Positions 6,340 through 17,780 of a stretch of DNA of 60,156 nucleotides are shown here, in pieces (within the stretch, counting starts at the first letter, position 1; each line of letters starts with the position of its first letter). This DNA is from a virus, in IMG/VR virus record IMGVR_UViG_3300029805_000006, positions 1 through 60,156 of that record; one strand, written 5' to 3'. The notes under the pieces are model-generated. The model was given only the letters and a program-made list of their open reading frames with translations, was not told the DNA's origin and did no database searches. The translations under genes and the position numbers were made by a program.

Positions 6340-7790
6340 TGGCACGCACAAGCAAATTCCGCAGGGACTGGCAACGATACCATAAACGATGGAGCCAGGA
6401 CTTGGTTCTTATGGTGCGGGAGGGTTTCAATGTGGAGCCCCACGTACAGCAATTGCAGGTGCTCGAAGCTATCCAGGCTGAGAGCACTATGCCGTTTCAT
6501 AAGAGGAAGAAACGCTTCGTCATTGTGTCCGCGCAGGGAGGAGGCAAGTCCGCCATGGAAGTGTGGGTCGCAGTGTGGCGCTGCCTTCGCCACGTCTCCG
6601 CAGTCTCCGCAGTTACCGCGCCGGGCATGCGCCAAGTAGGTCAGTGGTTCGACGAGCTTCGCCGTCAACTCTCCTCGGCTCACCCGGTCCTCCAGCGACA
6701 CATCAGGGTCTTGAAGTCCAAGGCAGTCATCGCAGGTCAGGACGGCTGGGAGATCAGGGGAATGACAGCCACGACCCCTGGTAAGATTGCAGGCCTCCAC
6801 CAGACTCACTTGGGCTACATCGTTGACGAGGCCAATGAGATGTTGCGCCCTTTGATCCAAACGATTGAAGGCACGCTCACCAATCAGGATTCGATCATGC
6901 TCCTGGCAGGCAACCCTATCTCCATCAACAACTCGCTGCACGATGCCTGCACGAAGTTTAGGAACCTCTACCATGTGTTCCACTTCGACCGCATCACCAT
7001 CGCACGAGACCGGCCCGACATCATCGCGCCTGAAGAGAACGAGAAGCTCCTGATTCAGTACGGCAAGGACTCTGACTTCTACCGCGTGCGTGTGTTGGGA
7101 TTGTTCCCGAACAAGAACTCCGACACGCTCATGGGAATCAACGACCTAGAAGCTTGCACGAAGAACAACATGTTGGAGTGCGCGGCCAGGAGGAACATCC
7201 TCCCTGAGAACCGCGCTTTCGGTCTGGACTTCTCCCGATATGGCGGAGACAAGAACGTGATGGTGCAGCGACAAGGGCTCGCAGTCATCCAGATGGAGAA
7301 GTACCTCGACATGGATCCCAACGAGCTGGTCGGTCGGGCTTTCTTCAATCAGAACATCTCCCGCTGGGATGACCGAGACTGCATCTTCATTGCTGATGCT
7401 GGAGGCCTCGGTCAAGGAGTCATGCACAACTTCCACCAGCAGGGCAAGAGATTGGTGGCATTCCACACTGAAGGCAAGGCCTTCGAGTCTCGCATCTTCG
7501 CAAACAAGATGGCAGAGGCTTGGTGGAACCTTTCCAAGTTGGTAGAGAAGCGCCTCGTCTACCTGCCCGACGATCCTGACCTGCTTCAGCAGTTGTCTTC
7601 CCGCAAATACATCATCGACGATAAGACCGGCAAGATCGACCTACAGTCAAAAGACGAATGGAAGAAGGACGTAGAGCAGGACATCTCTCCAGACGAAGCC
7701 GACGCTACAGCCATGGCGTTCTACAGCCCTCACCGCAACGGAGTCAGTATGCTCCAGCTCGACCGTAGTCGAACTCCCCGGAGACTCTAA
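6339..7790 (+). CDS. terL: terminase large subunit
   Basis: 483 aa. Walker A-like VSAQGGGKSA and Walker B-like GYIVDEANEM. The C-terminal half has acidic nuclease-like motifs (FIADAGGLG, SPDEADA). It lies beside the portal/capsid genes. Confidence 0.85.
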   Translation: MARTSKFRRDWQRYHKRWSQDLVLMVREGFNVEPHVQQLQVLEAIQAESTMPFHKRKKRFVIVSAQGGGKSAMEVWVAVWRCLRHVSAVSAVTAPGMRQVGQWFDELRRQLSSAHPVLQRHIRVLKSKAVIAGQDGWEIRGMTATTPGKIAGLHQTHLGYIVDEANEMLRPLIQTIEGTLTNQDSIMLLAGNPISINNSLHDACTKFRNLYHVFHFDRITIARDRPDIIAPEENEKLLIQYGKDSDFYRVRVLGLFPNKNSDTLMGINDLEACTKNNMLECAARRNILPENRAFGLDFSRYGGDKNVMVQRQGLAVIQMEKYLDMDPNELVGRAFFNQNISRWDDRDCIFIADAGGLGQGVMHNFHQQGKRLVAFHTEGKAFESRIFANKMAEAWWNLSKLVEKRLVYLPDDPDLLQQLSSRKYIIDDKTGKIDLQSKDEWKKDVEQDISPDEADATAMAFYSPHRNGVSMLQLDRSRTPRRL

Positions 7791-8206
7791 TGAATACCCA
7801 ACTGACCTCGGTCTGCTTCAACGCGATCCCTGACCAAGCACTGAAATCCTACTTCAATGGTTGTGGCGGTCCAGGCTTCCGCGTGCCATCCTTCGGCGTG
7901 TTCACTCCTGCCTGCCTGTGGCACGATCTGGCGTATGTTATTGGAGGAACCGACACTGATAGACTCAGGGCCGACCGGATGTTCCTGAGGGACATGCTGA
8001 AGCGCCGTAAGAAAGCCTCGTGGTGGAAGCGGTGGCTCTTGAAGATCGCGGCCCGCACCTACTACTCCGCAGTCAGGCTGGCCGGAAGGAAGCACTTCCA
8101 TATCACAGAAAAGTCGCCCTCCTGGGATGACCTAAGAGGGCGACTGAAGAGTCAAGGCAAGGTTGCCGTGTGGTGGTGGGTGGACGGCCTCAGCGTTACT
8201 GGCTGA
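7790..8206 (+). CDS. hypothetical protein with G-x-G-G-P-G ... C-x-W-H-D-x-x-Y ... R-x-D-R-x-F motifs (DUF1353-like or phospholipase A2-like)
   Basis: 138 aa. YFNGCGGPGFRVPSFGVFTPACLWHDLAYVIGGTDTDRLRADRMFLRDM. TAATG coupling to terL. The family assignment is from memory of the HDxxY motif families only. Confidence 0.55.
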   Translation: MNTQLTSVCFNAIPDQALKSYFNGCGGPGFRVPSFGVFTPACLWHDLAYVIGGTDTDRLRADRMFLRDMLKRRKKASWWKRWLLKIAARTYYSAVRLAGRKHFHITEKSPSWDDLRGRLKSQGKVAVWWWVDGLSVTG

Positions 8207-8444
8207 AGATTGCCCAGACGGTTCCATCAGAGAACCAAAGCTCGTAGCCGTTGATGGTATGGTCGAGCCAGATCATGCAGCGTTGGAAGGAGGCCGCCGG
8301 GTGAGTCGCTTCGATGGTCAATTCCGTCAGCGCCGTCTCTGGCATAGGGAAAGGCTTGTCGAAGATGTTGACCATGTTGGTATCGACGCCAGCGTCCCAG
8401 CCTTGTTGGCCAGAGATCAGAGGGATTCTAAGAGGACGAGCCAT
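8196..8444 (-). CDS. hypothetical protein (82 aa), co-oriented with the portal
   Basis: ORF track. TAATG overlap with the portal stop. Its 3' end overlaps the convergent 7790..8206 by 11 nt. Confidence 0.55.
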   Translation of the reverse strand: MARPLRIPLISGQQGWDAGVDTNMVNIFDKPFPMPETALTELTIEATHPAASFQRCMIWLDHTINGYELWFSDGTVWAIFSQ

Positions 8445-9886
8445 TACTTACCTGCCTTGCCGGGGTTGCCGGACGTAGTTTTGCGACCACCTGTTCGGTC
8501 TTTGCCGCTGGATAGAAGACCCTTCTTAGGATCACGAGTCGAGCCGCCTTGGGGCTCGCGCTGCTTGGACATGGTGTCCATCGCTACCATGTCGAGGTGA
8601 TCGACGATGGTCTTGAAGGCGTTTCCTTTCTCAGCGAAGGGAAGCTCCTCTGTTTTGGCAAGGCCCTTGAAGGTGTTCTCTGGAAGAGATCGACCTTTCG
8701 TATCTTCAGGGCTAGAGAACACCAAACCCTTCTGACCTAAGGTGCATTGCAGGGCTCGGCTCCACACGCGCTGTGCAGGCCCGCACTTGATCTTCTGGAA
8801 CAGGATCAAGGCGTTAGGCCCCTCGTTGTTGGAGGCCATCTTGCCGGGAACCAGGAGGCCTGCGAGGACGGCGGGAACACCGTGGACGGAAACGATGGCT
8901 TCCATGAGCTTGTCCATCTTGTCGGAGAACTCTCCCTCGGTCATGACTTCCGACACGAGCTTGTGGATCTCAAGCCGGACATCTTCAGGAGAAGAGTTGA
9001 AGTGAGCGAGGCCGGTGCGGTGCCCGTTACCTACTCCGGTGGAGTTGTTGAGCAACTCTTTGAAAGCCATGATGCAACCTGCGTCAAGGTTCGCGCCCAC
9101 CAGCTCCACGATGAAGTCGGGGATGCCGTGGTTGAAGTAGAAGTCTCCTTCGTACTGCAACATCAAACAGGCCAGTTCAATGTAGGCCACCGCCGAGGTG
9201 TAGTCGATGCCACCGTACCAAGGAGAGTTCGCGCAAGGCTCTCGCACGATGATGACTTCAGAGTTCACAATGTCTCCCTCCATAGAGGCTACGTTCGCTC
9301 CCTTCTTCGGACGCCCTCGACCGCGCTTGCCTCCTCTCTTCTTCAACGCCTCAAGGTCTCCGAAGGAAGCCATGACAACAGTCCTGACTCCGTAGTGAAC
9401 GTAGTGCCACTTGTGACCGCGTTCATCTTCTTGACTGACCTTCACTTGGTTCGCTGGCAAGTAGTAAAGGCCCGTGATCATGAGAGGGTTCTTCTCATCT
9501 CTCACCACTTCGATGAACCCGAAGCCATACTTGCGAACGTCTTGGTCTACGCAGTTGATGGTATCGTCGAAGTTCAACTTGCACACAGGGTCGAGGATGT
9601 CGTAGGCCTCTTCGACGCGCAAGCCCTGGCCCACAATCGAATCGGTCTTGGTCTCAAGGCACTTCTCGTGGTACGGATTTAATTTGGCCAAGTCATTTGC
9701 TGTAGACAAACAAATAGGGTAGGGCTGGATTCCAACAGACCCGTGGACGTTGGACCCTTCTTCCCCAGGCTTCTGGGATTTCCTCACCAAGGTCAGTTGA
9801 TGCAACTTGGATCCCTGCGTGGTCAGGGGCGCTTTCCCCCGCTTGTAATGCAGCAGTTCGCTTTTTACTTTTTTTTCTTCGGTCAT
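8444..9886 (-). CDS. portal protein
   Basis: 480 aa. The central region (GLRVEEAYDIL...KYGFGFIEVVRDEKNP...LYYLPANQVKV) looks like PBSX/HK97-type portal family members as I recall them. It sits between terL and the capsid operon. The orientation is inverted relative to both. Confidence 0.75.
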   Translation of the reverse strand: MTEEKKVKSELLHYKRGKAPLTTQGSKLHQLTLVRKSQKPGEEGSNVHGSVGIQPYPICLSTANDLAKLNPYHEKCLETKTDSIVGQGLRVEEAYDILDPVCKLNFDDTINCVDQDVRKYGFGFIEVVRDEKNPLMITGLYYLPANQVKVSQEDERGHKWHYVHYGVRTVVMASFGDLEALKKRGGKRGRGRPKKGANVASMEGDIVNSEVIIVREPCANSPWYGGIDYTSAVAYIELACLMLQYEGDFYFNHGIPDFIVELVGANLDAGCIMAFKELLNNSTGVGNGHRTGLAHFNSSPEDVRLEIHKLVSEVMTEGEFSDKMDKLMEAIVSVHGVPAVLAGLLVPGKMASNNEGPNALILFQKIKCGPAQRVWSRALQCTLGQKGLVFSSPEDTKGRSLPENTFKGLAKTEELPFAEKGNAFKTIVDHLDMVAMDTMSKQREPQGGSTRDPKKGLLSSGKDRTGGRKTTSGNPGKAGK

Positions 9887-9889
9887 AAC

Positions 9890-9918
9890 TTGACAAGTGT
9901 ATCAGAGCGGGATATACT
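9890..9918 (+). promoter_or_regulatory. strong sigma70-type promoter for the head/tail operon
   Basis: TTGACA (9890-9895), an exact 17-nt spacer, and TATACT (9913-9918). It lies in the divergent gap between the portal (-) and the scaffold/protease gene (+), 58 nt upstream of the ATG at 9977. Confidence 0.6.
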
Positions 9919-9976
9919 CCCGTATCGAGTGGATCAAATTGAGATCCTCGGAACGCAAGAATTCTAACTGATAACC

Positions 9977-11023
9977 ATGGCAAAAGCCAAGAAAAGACTG
10001 AAAAATTTGAAGATCAATACTCTGTCGCTGTGCAAACGCGGTAAGAACGGTCTCAAAACAGTTCTAAAATCCCAAGGCTCTGGAGCCTCGACTTTGGAAG
10101 CGCCCTCCCAGTTCCTAGTTCGAGAGGACCCGGAAGTCAAGGGCCGCCTGTTGGTGGTGAACGTGGTACCCAACCTTCCCGACGTTGACGGAGAAGAGAC
10201 CGAGACTGAAGTGGTCATGCGGGCCGCGCACGAATACCTGCGCGATTTCCGACAGCTTGACATCGAACACAACGGCAAGATCCTGCCCAAGAGTGCAGCC
10301 TACCTTGCGGAGTCCTTCATCATCAACGAAGGCGACACCCGGTTCCAAGACTGGGAAGACTACGACGGCAACCCGGTAGACGTTACCGGCGGCTGGGCCA
10401 GCGTGATCCAACTCAACGACCCCGACCTTATCCAGTCCTACTTGGACGGAGACTGGGACGGAATTAGCATGCTCGGCACCGCCAACTTGGTGGTCGAGAA
10501 ATCCAAAAAACCCAAAGCCGCCCCCGGCGGAAATCACATGACCCCCGAAGAGATCAAAGCTCTCTTGGACGGACGCGATGAAGCCTTGATTCAAAAGATC
10601 GTGGCGCTCATGTCCGAGACCAAAGAGACCAAAGAGGACGTGTCTGAAGAGACCGCCCAAGCTCCTGTGTTCAAAGGCGACATCCAAAATGTTGAGGACG
10701 TTACCGCGTTCCAACTGGAACTGGCCGCCCACGAACTTTCCACCAAAATCGCTAACGGCGAGATGGACTCTACTCAACTCATGGCAGTTGTGAAGAGCAT
10801 GTCCGCTGATGGTCCGTCCGACAAAGAGTTAGGCCTGGACAGCGAATCCTCCACCAAGGAGCGTAGCCTTGCTCGTGAACTTCATGAAGTTCGCAAGAGT
10901 CGCCATGCTTCTACCCTCACTGTAGAGGGCTCCGAAGAGACCGAAGACGAACAGGAACTCAGTGATGAAGACCTGATCAACATCGGCCTTGGCCGTCCCG
11001 TCACCCGCAAGGAGGCCAAGTAA
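9977..11023 (+). CDS. XkdF-like prohead protease fused to an acidic scaffold-like C-terminal region
   Basis: LLVVNVVPNLPDVDGEETETEVVMRAAHEYLRDFRQLDIEHNG...AESFIINEGD...GGWASVIQLNDPDL...GDWDGISMLG follows the XkdF (Peptidase_S78_2) pattern. The C-terminal 150 aa are E/K/D-rich and helical. Position is portal-proximal. Confidence 0.7.
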   Translation: MAKAKKRLKNLKINTLSLCKRGKNGLKTVLKSQGSGASTLEAPSQFLVREDPEVKGRLLVVNVVPNLPDVDGEETETEVVMRAAHEYLRDFRQLDIEHNGKILPKSAAYLAESFIINEGDTRFQDWEDYDGNPVDVTGGWASVIQLNDPDLIQSYLDGDWDGISMLGTANLVVEKSKKPKAAPGGNHMTPEEIKALLDGRDEALIQKIVALMSETKETKEDVSEETAQAPVFKGDIQNVEDVTAFQLELAAHELSTKIANGEMDSTQLMAVVKSMSADGPSDKELGLDSESSTKERSLARELHEVRKSRHASTLTVEGSEETEDEQELSDEDLINIGLGRPVTRKEAK

Positions 11024-13010: not shown

Positions 13011-13529
13011 ATGGCATCAACACCCCTATTCTACTCCTCCCGCGATGATCTGAAAGAGAGCATGCGGCTCGGTCCCTCGTGCAACACTTCTGCCGATCCT
13101 ATGATCGACGAGTGCATGCTGAAGGCTCGACTGCGCATGTACGCAGAGTTGGGAGAAGCTAGAATAGGGGTGCTGTTGGCCCTCCCTGTAGAAGAGAACC
13201 CCACGACTGTCGATGAGCGCCTGCGCTCGAACGCTTCGTTGCTGGAACTCACCATGGTAAGGTGCTGTCTTCAAGACCGCCTGCCTCAAGTCTTCCTGGA
13301 CAAGTCTGGCGACATCAATAAGTTATGGGACGAACAAGCCATAACTCGGGAAGCATCTGAGTACGACTCTCGCTCTCAGCGATTGAACTGCTCATCTGAA
13401 ATCAATCGCCTGCTGGATGTCCTGGCAGACGGAAAACAAGACAACCCCTGTGGCGTTTACACCCACACCACCGGACCTGCGGCTGTAGATCGCCTGCCTC
13501 TAGGCGGCTCGATCTGGCCCTGTTCCTAA
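13011..13529 (+). CDS. hypothetical protein (172 aa), head-tail connector or adaptor by position
   Basis: ORF track; position only. Confidence 0.55.
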   Translation: MASTPLFYSSRDDLKESMRLGPSCNTSADPMIDECMLKARLRMYAELGEARIGVLLALPVEENPTTVDERLRSNASLLELTMVRCCLQDRLPQVFLDKSGDINKLWDEQAITREASEYDSRSQRLNCSSEINRLLDVLADGKQDNPCGVYTHTTGPAAVDRLPLGGSIWPCS

Positions 13530-13541
13530 CCCTGAATTATC

Positions 13542-13943
13542 ATGGCCTGCGGCACATACGACTCATACATCTCAGCCATCCAAGAGGGTGACATCGACGT
13601 AACCTCAGACATCTTCAAGGTGATCCTGATCGACACGGCGGACTACACCTTCGACGCGGCTGATGACTTCCTCTCGGACATCCCGGCTGCTGCTCGCGTA
13701 GCCACCGCCACCTTGGCCAACGTGGCCATCGTAGGCCGCGCCTTTGACGCAGACAACGTGACCTTCACGGCTGTCACCGGAGATGAATCAGAAGCGTTCG
13801 TGATCTACAAAGATACAGGCACGGAAGGCACCAGCCAACTGATCCTATATTCTGACGATGCCACGAACTTGCCTGTCACTCCCAACGGTGGCGATATCAC
13901 CATGACTTGGGACTCCGGCACCGACCGTATCTTCAGCCTGTAA
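13542..13943 (+). CDS. hypothetical virion protein (133 aa)
   Basis: ORF track; beta-rich sequence; position between the capsid and tail genes. Confidence 0.6.
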   Translation: MACGTYDSYISAIQEGDIDVTSDIFKVILIDTADYTFDAADDFLSDIPAAARVATATLANVAIVGRAFDADNVTFTAVTGDESEAFVIYKDTGTEGTSQLILYSDDATNLPVTPNGGDITMTWDSGTDRIFSL

Positions 13944-13946
13944 GAA

Positions 13947-14261
13947 ATGTCGCTCATCCACAGGTTGATCGGGCGCAACGCCACTGACGAGTCTCTCCCC
14001 TTCACAGAGGAGAGGCTCCCTATCCACGGAGCTATGGCTCTGTTTGGAGAGATCATCCGTGGGTACATCTCGTTCGCTGACGCAACTACCCTCTTCGGGT
14101 TGACGGAGGACGAAAAGACAGAGCTGCAAGGATGGATGACTGCATGGTCTACATCCTCCACGTTCGACATGTCAGAACTGAAAGACGTTCTGATGCTAGG
14201 AGAGACAGGACTGTATACGGTGGCCGAAATCCAAGCGCGCCTTGGTTTGACTGTAGGATAA
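13947..14261 (+). CDS. hypothetical protein (104 aa)
   Basis: ORF track; tight spacing. Confidence 0.55.
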   Translation: MSLIHRLIGRNATDESLPFTEERLPIHGAMALFGEIIRGYISFADATTLFGLTEDEKTELQGWMTAWSTSSTFDMSELKDVLMLGETGLYTVAEIQARLGLTVG

Positions 14262-14264
14262 TTC

Positions 14265-16892
14265 GTGGCAGACCCGAAGTTCATCGCACGGCAAATCACG
14301 ATCACCGCCCCTGCGACGGGAACGTGGAATGTCTCACATCCCGAGCTGGTAGCCAGGGGGATCACACCGAAAGCTGTGATCGTCATGGCTTCTGCTGTAG
14401 ATTCAGAGACCGACAAGGACATCTCTACGAACGCTTCCGGTTCGTGGGGAGTCTACGATGGTACGGACCAGTCCGCACAAAACTGGTTTAGTAAGGACGC
14501 TCAATCTACTTCACAGAGCGACAGTGGATTCAAGTCCTCCACGGTAGCTAGAGTAGGAGGACTGGGAGGGGAGACTCTCCACCTGGAGATGGACGCCACC
14601 GCCCTCGTTTCAGGAGGAGGTACGTTCAACGTATCGACCAGTGATGCAGGTCAAGTGGTACGAGTTACCTTCCTGTTCTTGGGAGGAACGGAGCTTGATG
14701 TCACCTACTTCTCAGCGACAGCAAACCTGTCCACGACTACCGTCACTGTAGGGTTCGAGACTGATGTCATCTTCGCGTCAGGGCGTAGGGACATCGGAGC
14801 AGATTCAGAAGCAGACGTTGACTCTCTGCACTATCATTGGAGTATGATCACCGCCATCAATGATGGCGCAGGTGAGTTCGATGATATCGGAAAACACAAC
14901 TACGCTAAGGATGGTTTATCTACCATTCAGAGTAGGTCCATCATCACAAATGATAGGGCCAAGTTTTCAGTCACTCTAGATCCTACAGCGTCAGACGGTT
15001 CGAGTTACTTTGAGAATGTAACTTCCACAACTTTCGACTACAGGGAATCCACTCAAGCCTCAGACCACGCAGTCTTTGGTCTGGCTTTAGATCTAGGCAC
15101 TGTGGTTTATGGACAGGCCACCAACTATCTCACCCCGATTGATTTTCCTGTCGGTGAAGATACAATCTCTTATGATGACCTTGGGTTTCTCCCGGAGCTG
15201 ATTTACAGTCCTTGGGTTTATCGAAACACAGGTACGGTCTCTGGAGTTTCTTCAGGTGGAGGAATGGCAGGGGGCCTGAATATTTCAGACGGCTCTAGTG
15301 TGTCAGGTCACCACTACAGCGACAACCACAACGTCTCAACATCTAAGACCAGGACCGCAGTAAACAGCGGTAATTTCTTCACTGGATTTTTCCATGGAGG
15401 GACTCTCCTTTGGTCTGGAGACATCGTCCATACAGCAGATGGATTCGACATTGTATGGATTGACAACAGTACTGAAGTCCTCGGTCACTTCCACGCTCTT
15501 GGTATTGAAAACCAAGGCGCATGGTTAGGAGAGACTACAGGCTGCGCTTCGGTAGAGTCGTGCGGTACTCCTACCGTTTCAGTAGGCGCAGTTGATCTAG
15601 TAGCTACTGGCTGCCCCGCTCCCGGCGCGTGCGGCACGGCTACAGTCTCTACGTCCATCGGCCTCACTGCGACTGGATGCGCTGCGACGGGCTCGTGCGG
15701 TACGCCGGTCATCACACCTCCGACTACCTCGCTCACCGCGACTGGTTGTCCTGCCAACGGCGCGTGTGGCACGCCTGTCATCACGCCTCCCACCACTGCA
15801 CTTACCGCCACCGGCTGTGCAGCCTCCGGGACATGTGGCACGACTGTCATCGCTCCGGGAGCCGTCAATCTTACCGCCACCGGCTGTGCTGCGACCGGCG
15901 TGTGTGGCACGGCTTCTGTTTCAGTAGGAGCTGTGGTCTTAGCCGCAGTGGCCTGCTTGGCCATGGCTGCGTGCGGTACTCCTACAATCTCTGTAGGAGC
16001 CTTTGATCTCGTGGCAAATAGCTGCCCTGCGACAGGCTCGTGCGGCACTCCTACAGTCTCTACCGGAGCCGTCAACCTCACGGCTACCGGCTGCCCCGCT
16101 ACAGGCGCGTGTGGCACGCCTACAGTCTCTACCGGAGCCGTGACCCTCACTGCTACTGGTTGCACCGCGACAGGCGCGTGCGGCACTCCTACAGTCACTC
16201 AGGCAGGACAGGATCTCACGGCTACCGGATGCACGGCGACCGGCGACTGTGGCACTCCCACATTGACTCTGGGCGCGGTTGACCTCACGGCTACCGGCTG
16301 CCCAGCCACTGGAGCGTGCGGCGATACCACAGTAGGCACTGATGCGCAAGTAATTACCGCAAATAGCTGTTCAAGTGTCTCAAAATGTGGTATTGTTTTC
16401 CTTCAAGGCGGGACTATCCCCGAAACCATGCACACCCGAATCAAGAACGCTCTCATCTGCGCTGCCCGCTTAGGGACATTCATCAAGGTCGATCAGCAAT
16501 GCTCAGGCGTAGGTGACTGTGGTGATACGGCTACCCAGTCTCAAGGATTGCAAGTGGCCCCGGCCACCATCCTCGTGAATGAAGTCCGCACCAAGTTCGC
16601 TGAGAGAGATCGCTGCTCGCCGTGCGGCAAGCATGGTCGCCGTCGTACTCAATGGATGTGGAAAATGATCCTTCGCTTTGACTGCGATGTGACCACCACT
16701 CTGTTTGACGAGCAGATCGCATGTACCCCCGTGGTGCTGCCCCGCCTACCGGAACCTGTTGAAGGGCTCCACACAAAAAACCGACAAGTGGTTCTCCAGT
16801 TGTTGGACATCGTACCGAAGCATCCTCCTGGAGGCAAATCGTCTTCAGGCGCGGAGTTTCATTACATCTTCGAAGCGCAGACCAGCGCATAA
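14265..16892 (+). CDS. large virion-module protein with 12 tandem 23-aa double-cysteine repeats
   Basis: 875-aa ORF with a GTG start. Repeats occupy aa 426-700. It is the only long ORF consistent with the operon's strand and spacing. Confidence 0.75.
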   Translation: MADPKFIARQITITAPATGTWNVSHPELVARGITPKAVIVMASAVDSETDKDISTNASGSWGVYDGTDQSAQNWFSKDAQSTSQSDSGFKSSTVARVGGLGGETLHLEMDATALVSGGGTFNVSTSDAGQVVRVTFLFLGGTELDVTYFSATANLSTTTVTVGFETDVIFASGRRDIGADSEADVDSLHYHWSMITAINDGAGEFDDIGKHNYAKDGLSTIQSRSIITNDRAKFSVTLDPTASDGSSYFENVTSTTFDYRESTQASDHAVFGLALDLGTVVYGQATNYLTPIDFPVGEDTISYDDLGFLPELIYSPWVYRNTGTVSGVSSGGGMAGGLNISDGSSVSGHHYSDNHNVSTSKTRTAVNSGNFFTGFFHGGTLLWSGDIVHTADGFDIVWIDNSTEVLGHFHALGIENQGAWLGETTGCASVESCGTPTVSVGAVDLVATGCPAPGACGTATVSTSIGLTATGCAATGSCGTPVITPPTTSLTATGCPANGACGTPVITPPTTALTATGCAASGTCGTTVIAPGAVNLTATGCAATGVCGTASVSVGAVVLAAVACLAMAACGTPTISVGAFDLVANSCPATGSCGTPTVSTGAVNLTATGCPATGACGTPTVSTGAVTLTATGCTATGACGTPTVTQAGQDLTATGCTATGDCGTPTLTLGAVDLTATGCPATGACGDTTVGTDAQVITANSCSSVSKCGIVFLQGGTIPETMHTRIKNALICAARLGTFIKVDQQCSGVGDCGDTATQSQGLQVAPATILVNEVRTKFAERDRCSPCGKHGRRRTQWMWKMILRFDCDVTTTLFDEQIACTPVVLPRLPEPVEGLHTKNRQVVLQLLDIVPKHPPGGKSSSGAEFHYIFEAQTSA
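15540..16364 (+). repeat. tandem 69-bp (23-aa) coding repeat, 12 copies; a degenerate 13th runs to about 16412
   Basis: Example units: GCASVESCGTPTVSVGAVDLVAT, GCPATGACGTPTVSTGAVNLTAT, GCTATGDCGTPTLTLGAVDLTAT. One copy is 22 aa. Frame checked: codon 426 starts at 15540 and codon 701 at 16365. Confidence 0.9.
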
Positions 16893-16916: not shown

Positions 16917-17780
16917 ATGCTTACTGCAAACACTACGGGCAGCTCCAATGATCGGGACATCCTGATCCCCGGAGCCGAACTTTTTGTCGCGTCTATCGGC
17001 GCTGACGGATTTCCCGACAACGGAGGTCTTCGCAACGTAGGTTGCATTGAGACCGTCACCCTTTCGACCGAGGAAGAACTCAAGGACATCTACTGCAAAA
17101 AGAAGTGCAAGAAGGTCCTCATCAAGTCGGTCTCGATCACCTCTGACATCACCGTCGCTTGGCAGATGAAAGAAGTCTCGGCTCAAAACCTTGCCTTGTT
17201 CCTGAAAGGAACCACGGTCATCTACGACAACCCTCACGACACGACCTTTGCTGATGCTCAGATCGTTGACGGCGGCACCACCGCTTTCACGCTGGGTCAC
17301 TGGTACCTCATGAAGGACTTGTCCGGCGCTCGCGCATACAACCTCGGCGCTGCTGGGTGTGTCTACGCTATCCACGATGATGCCGCTGCTGTGATGGACA
17401 CCACGGACTACGAGATCGACGAAGAAGCAGGCATGATCCGCTTCAAGTCTGGTGGAACGAACACCCTCACGGGTGCTGAGAAGATGGAGTGGGACATCAC
17501 CACTGCTGCCACCGTCGCCACCGACCTGACTGAAGTCCAGTCCTTCAAGTTCTCCAACCAAGAGCTGTATGTGGTCATCCGTGTTGGCAACTCTGCCGAC
17601 ACCTTGTCCAACGGCGACTGCTCGGAAGGCGAAGTGGTCATCCCCCGTTTGAGCGTAAGCTCTGATGGTGAATTCTCCTTGAGTGGAGATGAAGAATCCC
17701 TGTTGGGTGTTACGGGCCGAGTGCTCGAACCTTCCAATGGTGAAGAAGCGCTGTTCACCCGCGCTCGCGTACAGGCGTAA
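16917..17780 (+). CDS. major tail (tube) protein
   Basis: 287 aa. It lies immediately upstream of the G/GT chaperone pair and the tape measure, and is followed by hairpins. Confidence 0.65.
   Translation: MLTANTTGSSNDRDILIPGAELFVASIGADGFPDNGGLRNVGCIETVTLSTEEELKDIYCKKKCKKVLIKSVSITSDITVAWQMKEVSAQNLALFLKGTTVIYDNPHDTTFADAQIVDGGTTAFTLGHWYLMKDLSGARAYNLGAAGCVYAIHDDAAAVMDTTDYEIDEEAGMIRFKSGGTNTLTGAEKMEWDITTAATVATDLTEVQSFKFSNQELYVVIRVGNSADTLSNGDCSEGEVVIPRLSVSSDGEFSLSGDEESLLGVTGRVLEPSNGEEALFTRARVQA

Follow-up and report, generated by a model that had tools for sequence, protein, structure and literature searches.

Accessory fibres with tandem-repeat stalks are already known from phages as a kind of object, and the locus described here can be set beside two mycobacteriophage systems. 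In the part of the published account used here, the tail wing of Bxb1 consists of a base (gp30) that docks on the tail spike protein, an arm (gp31) and a brush (gp33), and the phage tolerates the deletion of gp30, growing modestly less well (PMC12646305, where Freeman et al., 2025 is cited for the wing). Marvin and Damien encode annotated, uncharacterised repeat proteins (gp88 and gp31, respectively) within a four-gene block (Damien gp30-33, L067; Marvin gp87-90, L068; L and P numbers are working labels) comprising a wing-base-like D-Ala-D-Ala carboxypeptidase, the repeat protein, which begins M-x-x-G-W-W-A-E, an arm of 135 amino acids (aa) and a protein of about 65 aa with a YPYTYWY motif. 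This arrangement suggests that in Damien and Marvin the repeat protein replaces the Bxb1 brush. Here we analyse a gene from a tailed, uncultured phage that encodes an 875-aa protein with the same type of repeat and is located at 14265..16892 on the + strand of the 60,156-nucleotide (nt) IMG/VR virus record IMGVR_UViG_3300029805_000006 (the whole of which, positions 1 to 60,156, is referred to as the window), which looks like a complete phage genome of about 60 kb. Every repeat unit of this protein carries a pair of cysteines. We lean towards the view that it is a structural fibre anchored by its C-terminus, probably at the neck of the particle, with a disulfide-stapled stalk.

A three-part protein of the virion module

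Judged by comparison of sequences, the gene is a real, conserved and selected protein-coding gene of the virion module. Its GTG start lies 5 nt after a ribosome-binding site (RBS)-like AGGA at 14256-14259, the TAA of the upstream gene being at 14259-14261. An orthologue is present in L001, a Logan contig from SRR18920793 that represents an independent assembly of another sample; it encodes a protein of 919 aa that is 64% identical, with 14 repeat units in the same frame and all cysteine pairs kept. The GTG start context is identical in the two genes, and synonymous differences are spread throughout. Three parts can be told apart in the protein: a head formed by a triplicated beta-sandwich, a stalk of repeats and a highly conserved C-terminal domain of about 155 aa, here called CT1. 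An earlier note, made from the sequence alone, had described a virion-module protein with separate N-terminal, repeat and C-terminal parts, and this division can now be given as a distal head, a stalk and a C-terminal domain of a conserved gene.

14265..16892, + strand: fibre gene, GTG start, 875 aa, stop TAA at 16890-16892 (from the open reading frame (ORF) list and its translation)
14265..15524, + strand: N-terminal head, aa 1-420, three homologous all-beta modules of about 130-140 aa, no cysteine
15540..16364, + strand: stalk, 12 tandem units in register, aa 426-700
16365..16391, + strand: degenerate 13th unit, SCSSVSKCG, aa 701-709, running into the C-terminal domain
16386..16889, + strand: CT1, proposed particle-attachment domain, aa 708-875, about 155 aa in relatives (from an alignment of 16 relatives)

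The protein contains 33 cysteines, with none in aa 1-425, 24 in the 12 units and nine in the last 175 aa. Neither Pfam nor PHROGs matches the whole protein or any of its three parts, and for Pfam this holds even at E<=10. Neither the fibre protein nor the major tail protein gave a match when GenBank phages were searched by tblastn, nor did 15 kb of sequence by megablast, and no relatives of the fibre protein were found in IMG/VR and the JGI metagenomes. Word-indexed protein searches returned first the protein itself and one relative, then nothing, and then one truncated protein. Such searches were thus almost blind here, and it was an exhaustive HMMER search that opened the family. Structure prediction with AlphaFold2 (AF2) from a two-sequence alignment was useless, with a predicted local distance difference test score (pLDDT) of 37; with 28 sequences in the alignment, the head and CT1 came out well and the stalk did not. 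Matches of the whole model in BFVD, as found by Foldseek, are to uncharacterised phage proteins only.

A cysteine-substituted member of a common repeat family

The 12 head-to-tail units begin at nt 15540, 15609, 15675, 15744, 15813, 15882, 15951, 16020, 16089, 16158, 16227 and 16296, with 16364 as the last position of the block. Of these, 11 have 23 aa; the single unit of 22 aa that had been noted earlier is unit 2, and a C-x5-C-G motif is present in all 12. The consensus of the units in this protein is G-C-A-A-T-G-A-C-G-T-P-T-V-S-V-G-A-V-D-L-T-A-T. The degenerate 13th copy had also been recognised correctly, and relatives read GI.S.E.FG.PFL.GG in its place; the count of about 26 regularly spaced cysteines agrees with the 26 found within units 1-13. 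A 14th motif, QCSGVGDCG at aa 745-753, again C-x5-C-G, had been missed.

A profile search, a check of the kind that the earlier note had proposed, places these units in a large family. The two-sequence profile was run against 1.84 billion representatives of clusters made at 50% identity. It matched 815 of these protein clusters at E<=1e-3, of which 306 also pass E<=1e-10 and 43 pass E<=1e-30, and across the repeat block the matches reach an E of 2e-63. In GenBank the repeat is found mainly in mycobacteriophage 'minor tail proteins', for example those of Marvin, Kumao, Damien, McProf and Wildcat. The earlier remark that the repeat was not recognised as any named family is right in that neither Pfam nor PHROGs models it, and wrong in so far as it implied a unique sequence, since the same unit recurs in all of these clusters. 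A Pfam scan of 46 family members leaves the repeat uncovered, with only one member touching DUF6437; a PDB search with a repeat-rich member matched no chain, and no description of a 23-aa repeat of this kind was found in the literature.

The family consensus, drawn from 1154 units, is GIASAEAFGTPTVTPGAVTISPT (G-I-A-S-A-E-A-F-G-T-P-T-V-T-P-G-A-V-T-I-S-P-T) and contains no cysteine. A spacing of 23 aa is the commonest in the family (1154 of about 2000 intervals), and proteins carry a median of 16 copies and a maximum of 40. Position by position, the protein has the conserved marks of the family, namely G9-T/S-P, G16 and a hydrophobic residue at each of 13, 18 and 20, its units retaining G1, G9-T-P, V13, G16, A17-V18 and L20. 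It departs from the family at position 2, where cysteine replaces an isoleucine that is found in 82% of family units, and at position 8, where cysteine replaces phenylalanine, tryptophan or leucine; in addition, position 6 is glycine for the family glutamate and position 22 alanine for proline. None of its units has the family pairing of Ile/Val/Leu at position 2 with Phe/Trp/Leu at position 8. Both positions are cysteine in 12 of 12 units here and in 14 of 14 in L001, whereas a further 148 representatives, with 851 units between them, have no cysteine at position 2 and a single one at position 8, in a dubious unit. DNA patterns for T-G-C-x-A-x-G-x-C-G-T-P returned only isolated chance matches from the JGI metagenomes and IMG/VR. 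Together, the tally of units and these pattern searches indicate that the double-cysteine form is so far confined to this phage and one relative. Across the family there is modest covariation between positions 2 and 8, with a z of 4.7 relative to shuffles within proteins, a signal that is positive and not outstanding.

The repeat proteins of Marvin and Damien illustrate both sides of this comparison. They share the 23-aa period, the G9-T-P, the G16 and the hydrophobic residues at 13, 18 and 20, and they too have an arm gene next door and a variable globular domain at one end. They differ in having isoleucine and phenylalanine or tryptophan at positions 2 and 8 and glutamate at position 6, where this protein has cysteine, cysteine and glycine. 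Their order is also reversed: the N-terminal repeats follow a short WWAE peptide, and the globular domain is at the C-terminus. On the evidence of the alignments, then, the repeat is a cysteine-substituted member of a large, common, uncurated and structurally unsolved phage repeat family. What is new is the variant with two cysteines in every unit, the fusion of the family to neck-protein domains in uncultured sipho- and myoviruses, and the constant pairing with a Bxb1 gp31-like gene. The repeat thus occurs in more than 800 clusters, and in many mycobacteriophage 'minor tail proteins', with neither a curated family nor a solved structure, and the paired substitution in all units is a natural experiment that predicts which residues touch and suggests a covalent way of stiffening a phage fibre.

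Each unit is probably built from a short strand (T-P-T-V), a proline/glycine turn, a longer strand (A-V-x-L-T-A-T) and a nine-residue loop (G-I-A-S-A-E-A-F-G in the family), a division that agrees with the periodic strands of the low-confidence AF2 model. Its core, TPTVSTGAVNLTAT, in which a turn joins two strands, is reminiscent of the shaft repeat of adenovirus.

The distal head and the conserved C-terminal domain

The head consists of three modules (m1, aa 1-150; m2, aa 151-290; m3, aa 291-420), whose homology is apparent from hhalign probabilities of 97.7% for m1-m3, 96.3% for m2-m3 and 56% for m1-m2. AF2 models it as all-beta and folds it confidently as a single chain, with pLDDT values of about 80-95. 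The head has no sequence match in Pfam or the PDB; the best-matching folds belong to uncharacterised proteins from uncultured members of the Caudovirales, among them a DUF7483 protein (E 2e-6). The same head domain recurs in at least 20 further representatives of clusters, combined with the one or the other type of C-terminus, and other members of the repeat family carry LamG, BACON, PE-PPE or Ig-like domains. In L007 the triplicated head is replaced by another N-terminal domain, starting MADTKISALS; the gene (8590-10462) is apparently split by a frameshift into ORFs 8590-9246 and 9035-10462, which a sequencing error or a programmed shift could explain.

Compared with L001, the head is 61% and the stalk 59% identical, whereas CT1 is 94% identical at the amino acid and 89% at the nucleotide level, with synonymous differences present, and the major tail protein 82% identical. 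Fibres that attach by one end and meet a receptor with the other usually show this pattern, in which one end (here CT1) is conserved and the opposite one evolves fast. The head, taken as the fastest-evolving part and exchangeable between relatives, is therefore likely to be the part that binds the ligand. Moreover, a pseudo-trimeric head formed by a single chain suggests a monomeric fibre, which would fit one fibre per subunit of a neck ring.

CT1 (modelled for aa 720-875, pLDDT 75-88) shows the element order alpha-beta4-alpha-beta2. It contains two lineage-specific cysteine insertions, a C-x5-C at aa 746-752 (16500-16520, the motif extending to 16523) and a C-S-P-C, or C-x2-C, at aa 784-787 (16614-16625), and both are missing from the other 15 aligned relatives. 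No CT1 relatives, prophages included, were found in GTDB genomes. One candidate for a stand-alone CT1 protein, P0152, was rejected as a truncated gene call.

Gene neighbourhood and attachment to the particle

Two neighbouring genes bear on the site of attachment.

16917..17780, + strand: major tail protein gene, 24 nt past the fibre stop, with its own RBS AAGAGGAAG; phrog_807, E 4e-22
13542..13943, + strand: 133-aa arm homologue; PDB 9d93 chain 'Tail wing arm, gp31', E 3.2e-21; phrog_644 ('unknown function'), E 3e-35

The position directly before the major tail protein gene, already pointed out from the sequence, is shared across the subfamily: genes with CT1 occur in the block that separates a gpE-like capsid gene from the major tail protein gene, and a homologue of the latter follows directly in seven of seven loci with downstream DNA. 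PF27730 is present in orthologues of this major tail protein. In lambda, HK97, SPP1 and Bxb1 the slot before the major tail protein is occupied by terminators of 115-148 aa, and CT1, at about 155 aa, is close to them in size. The earlier note had remarked that a terminator or completion protein of about 130 aa would be expected in this slot. The expectation holds for the size of the C-terminal 155 aa, and the gene may contain such a protein rather than replace it. CT1 differs from the terminators (lambda gpU, SPP1 gp17, HK97 gp9 and Bxb1 gp18) in that no sequence or profile similarity to them was found and in never having been seen without repeats.

A sister subfamily, found in uncultured myoviruses (for example L009, P0024, P0029, P0031 and P0040), has a head and repeats as here but ends in PF05354, the family of the lambda head-tail attachment protein gpFII (E 1e-9 to 1e-11), and in P0029 and P0040 the head belongs to the same family as that of our protein. 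These fibres share with ours the repeat stalk, the upstream arm and the head-tail gene block; they differ in a C-terminus without detectable homology to CT1, in belonging to phages with a sheath as well as a tube, and in lacking the cysteine pairs. In the myovirus-like L009 an 883-aa fusion of head, repeats and FII (7685-10336) lies between a gpE-like capsid gene and the sheath gene, while at the equivalent position the related myovirus-like L021 has a stand-alone FII-like gene of 135 aa (9920-10327); an arm homologue precedes both. It follows from this pair, a clean example of a neck protein gaining a fibre, that the fibre of L009 is an N-terminal outgrowth of a neck protein. The suggestion of a neck whisker or fibre, first made from the sequence, is for these reasons the best reading available, and the fibre is probably anchored at the neck.

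The arm gene is the second constant feature of these loci. In all nine metagenomic loci whose DNA extends upstream, a full-length homologue precedes the repeat gene. The two mycobacteriophages have full-length homologues as well, gp32 in Damien and gp89 in Marvin (E about 1e-55), placed immediately downstream of the repeat-bearing minor tail proteins. Arm homologues also adjoin stand-alone FII-like genes in L020-L024. There is accordingly a recurrent design, in which a head, a repeat stalk and a neck-protein domain are joined in one chain beside a Bxb1 gp31-like arm gene, and this design links phage modules of an uncultured, Gram-negative type to the mycobacteriophage tail wing. If the design is confirmed, it would make it easier to annotate a large block of 'hypothetical' phage structural genes, and it could provide a modular, disulfide-stabilised scaffold for display or for the engineering of receptor binding.

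Cysteine is also more frequent in other structural proteins of this phage. The 172-aa ORF at 13011-13529 (+), in the position of a head-tail adaptor, has seven cysteines (4.1%) against one or two in the L005 and L007 orthologues, and relative to L005 the major tail protein has five against two and the capsid protein six against two, which hints at a lineage-wide shift to cysteine in neck and tail proteins. The enrichment reaches CT1, with its nine cysteines, and the adaptor-like protein, but not the head, and we counted this towards attachment at the head-tail junction.

In the architecture that we favour, CT1 would be the attachment end, most likely at the head-tail connector or the top of the tail, where it would act as, or replace, a small neck protein. 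The stalk would comprise 12-13 units of 23 aa, whose family membership is established and whose fold is predicted. The cysteine-free, triplicated beta-sandwich would form a pseudo-trimeric distal head that may bind reversibly to a polymer of the host surface, and the 133-aa arm homologue would be a constant partner, probably in the same appendage.

A bolder form of this proposal, which we put forward tentatively and regard as rather doubtful, is that the protein represents an undescribed single-chain fibre fold in which one 23-aa unit is one rung, closed by an Ile-Phe contact, and which arises as an N-terminal outgrowth of a neck-ring subunit in hundreds of uncultured sipho- and myoviruses. 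Six or 12 subunits would then each carry a monomeric whisker with a pseudo-trimeric head, and the phage studied here would be a natural 'disulfide-engineered' version that pinpoints the rung contact.

Several observations weigh against a neck fibre with a stapled stalk. CT1 has no sequence match in Pfam, PHROGs or the PDB. With respect to PF05354, there is no Pfam match at E<=10, and hhalign against FII-type C-termini gives a probability of 0.1%; against 15 reference neck and tail proteins, compared as single sequences, the probability is below 1%. These reference proteins include gpFII, gpU, gpZ, SPP1 gp15-17, HK97 gp6-9 and Bxb1 gp18, and since CT1 resembles neither them nor FII, its identity as a terminator or as an FII protein is unproven. 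No stand-alone CT1 protein is present among the top 150 representatives. Foldseek finds no match at E<=1e-3 between the whole model and the PDB, and the stalk reaches pLDDT values of just 45-52 with the 28-sequence alignment, so that its fold and oligomeric state are modelled with low confidence. The protein's presence in virions and its position on the particle are both matters that we infer. Furthermore, the cytoplasm in which phage proteins fold is reducing, and disulfides would have to wait for lysis before they form. The chief alternative in chemical terms is that the pairs bind metal. Lastly, in the part of the account used here, Bxb1 gp31 belongs to an appendage of the tail tip and not of the neck (PMC12646305).

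This last point bears on the leading alternative, namely that the same three modules are attached elsewhere, whether as a tail-tip accessory resembling the Bxb1 wing, on the tail tube or on the capsid, with CT1 as the docking domain. We consider this unlikely. The pairing with the arm gene ties the fibre to a known class of accessory appendage, and yet it is also the main argument for a site other than the neck, because the constant partner is homologous to a part of the tail-tip wing that docks via gp30, and because the repeat protein of Damien and Marvin lies in a tail-tip block, between the wing-base homologue and the arm gene. The lack of similarity between CT1 and any known neck protein also speaks for this view. 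The wing base itself, which combines FN3 with a D-Ala-D-Ala carboxypeptidase, has no homologue among the six-frame ORFs of the window when these are searched by phmmer with gp30 of Bxb1 and of Damien (none at E<=0.01). Moreover, the seven CT1 loci place the gene ahead of the major tail protein, within the genes for head-tail joining and not among tail-tip genes, the fibres of the sister subfamily end in a genuine domain of a neck protein, and arm homologues stand beside stand-alone FII-like genes as well as beside fibres. Set directly against the Bxb1 wing (PDB 9D93), the system described here is similar in its homologous arm, and both are accessory, probably non-essential appendages; it differs in that the stretch of Bxb1 examined has no 23-aa repeat protein, and in that the wing is at the tail tip whereas the gene here is in the neck block.

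Possible disulfide staples or metal sites

In other members of the family the loop of each unit would normally be closed by Ile2 packing on Phe or Trp8. In the fibre considered here a C-x5-C disulfide, formed after release into an oxidising environment, may lock each loop instead, and the 12-14 covalent staples, arranged as a ladder, would stiffen and protect the stalk. Such a ladder recalls the antifreeze protein of Tenebrio molitor, a beta-helix in which each short tandem unit has a C-x5-C and one disulfide. The resemblance is an analogy only, as the period there is 12 aa rather than 23, the sequences are unrelated, and so is the function.

The cysteine pairs could alternatively bind metal, and in a trimer the pairs of three chains could coordinate ions along the axis. 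The tip of the T4 long tail fibre has His-x-His iron sites, which such an arrangement would resemble. The regular spacing of the cysteines, at positions that in relatives hold hydrophobic core residues, would suit metal sites, as would the additional C-x2-C and C-x5-C insertions in CT1, and metal sites can form in the reducing cytoplasm in which virions assemble. However, C-x5-C is not a usual metal-binding knuckle, and the unit has no conserved histidine or aspartate that could serve as a co-ligand. Exactly one hydrophobic pair is swapped per unit, as a pairwise covalent contact needs, and the single-chain pseudo-trimeric head argues for a monomeric fibre. We therefore regard metal binding as decidedly improbable.

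Integrity of the repeat block

At the DNA level the units are 45-86% identical to one another, mostly 50-70%, and only units 8 and 9 reach 86%; Tandem Repeats Finder reports two arrays of period 69, at 15663-15851 and 16021-16322, with 75% matches each. The description of the DNA repeats as 'perfect' in the earlier note is thus incorrect. Its companion suggestion, a locus of variable copy number, is borne out by the difference between 12 units here and 14 in the nearest relative and by the range within the family, but the diverged DNA does not describe a hypervariable slippage locus. Four overlapping ORFs, 15485..16198(-), 15629..16006(+), 15939..16349(-) and 16040..16282(+), do exist, as had been listed; all fall inside the block of repeats or extend no more than 55 nt beyond it. 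Divergence among the units and the independent assembly of L001 make a collapse in assembly unlikely. Although the 69-nt periodicity leaves other frames open and repeats are a known source of misassembly, it is scarcely credible that misassembly or a wrong frame produced the block and that the long ORF does not correspond to one real protein, since L001, from another sample, has the same architecture, frame and cysteine pattern, hundreds of homologues are read in this frame too, and the domains on either side continue it and are conserved.

Genome context

Structural genes of the window are on the + strand and replication genes on the - strand, and the GC content is about 55%. The phage is distant from cultured phages, its capsid protein being at most 26% identical to that of any. 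Between the arm and fibre genes lies one further ORF.

13947..14261, + strand: 104-aa ORF, role unassigned

This ORF has no match in Pfam, PHROGs or the PDB and is absent from the corresponding place in L005, L008, L011 and L017; a weak match is found inside L003 (E 8e-6). Further upstream, two long ORFs overlap on opposite strands, 8444-9886 (-) and 8747-9682 (+), before a protease/scaffold-like gene, where the portal would be expected; neither has a PHROG match. The major tail protein contains a C-K-K-K-C motif, and its residues 44-276 show a weak match (E 0.01) to the tail tubes of two flagellotropic phages, Chi and YSD1 (PDB 8vhx and 6xgr). The genome size of about 60 kb and the GC content are also Chi-like.

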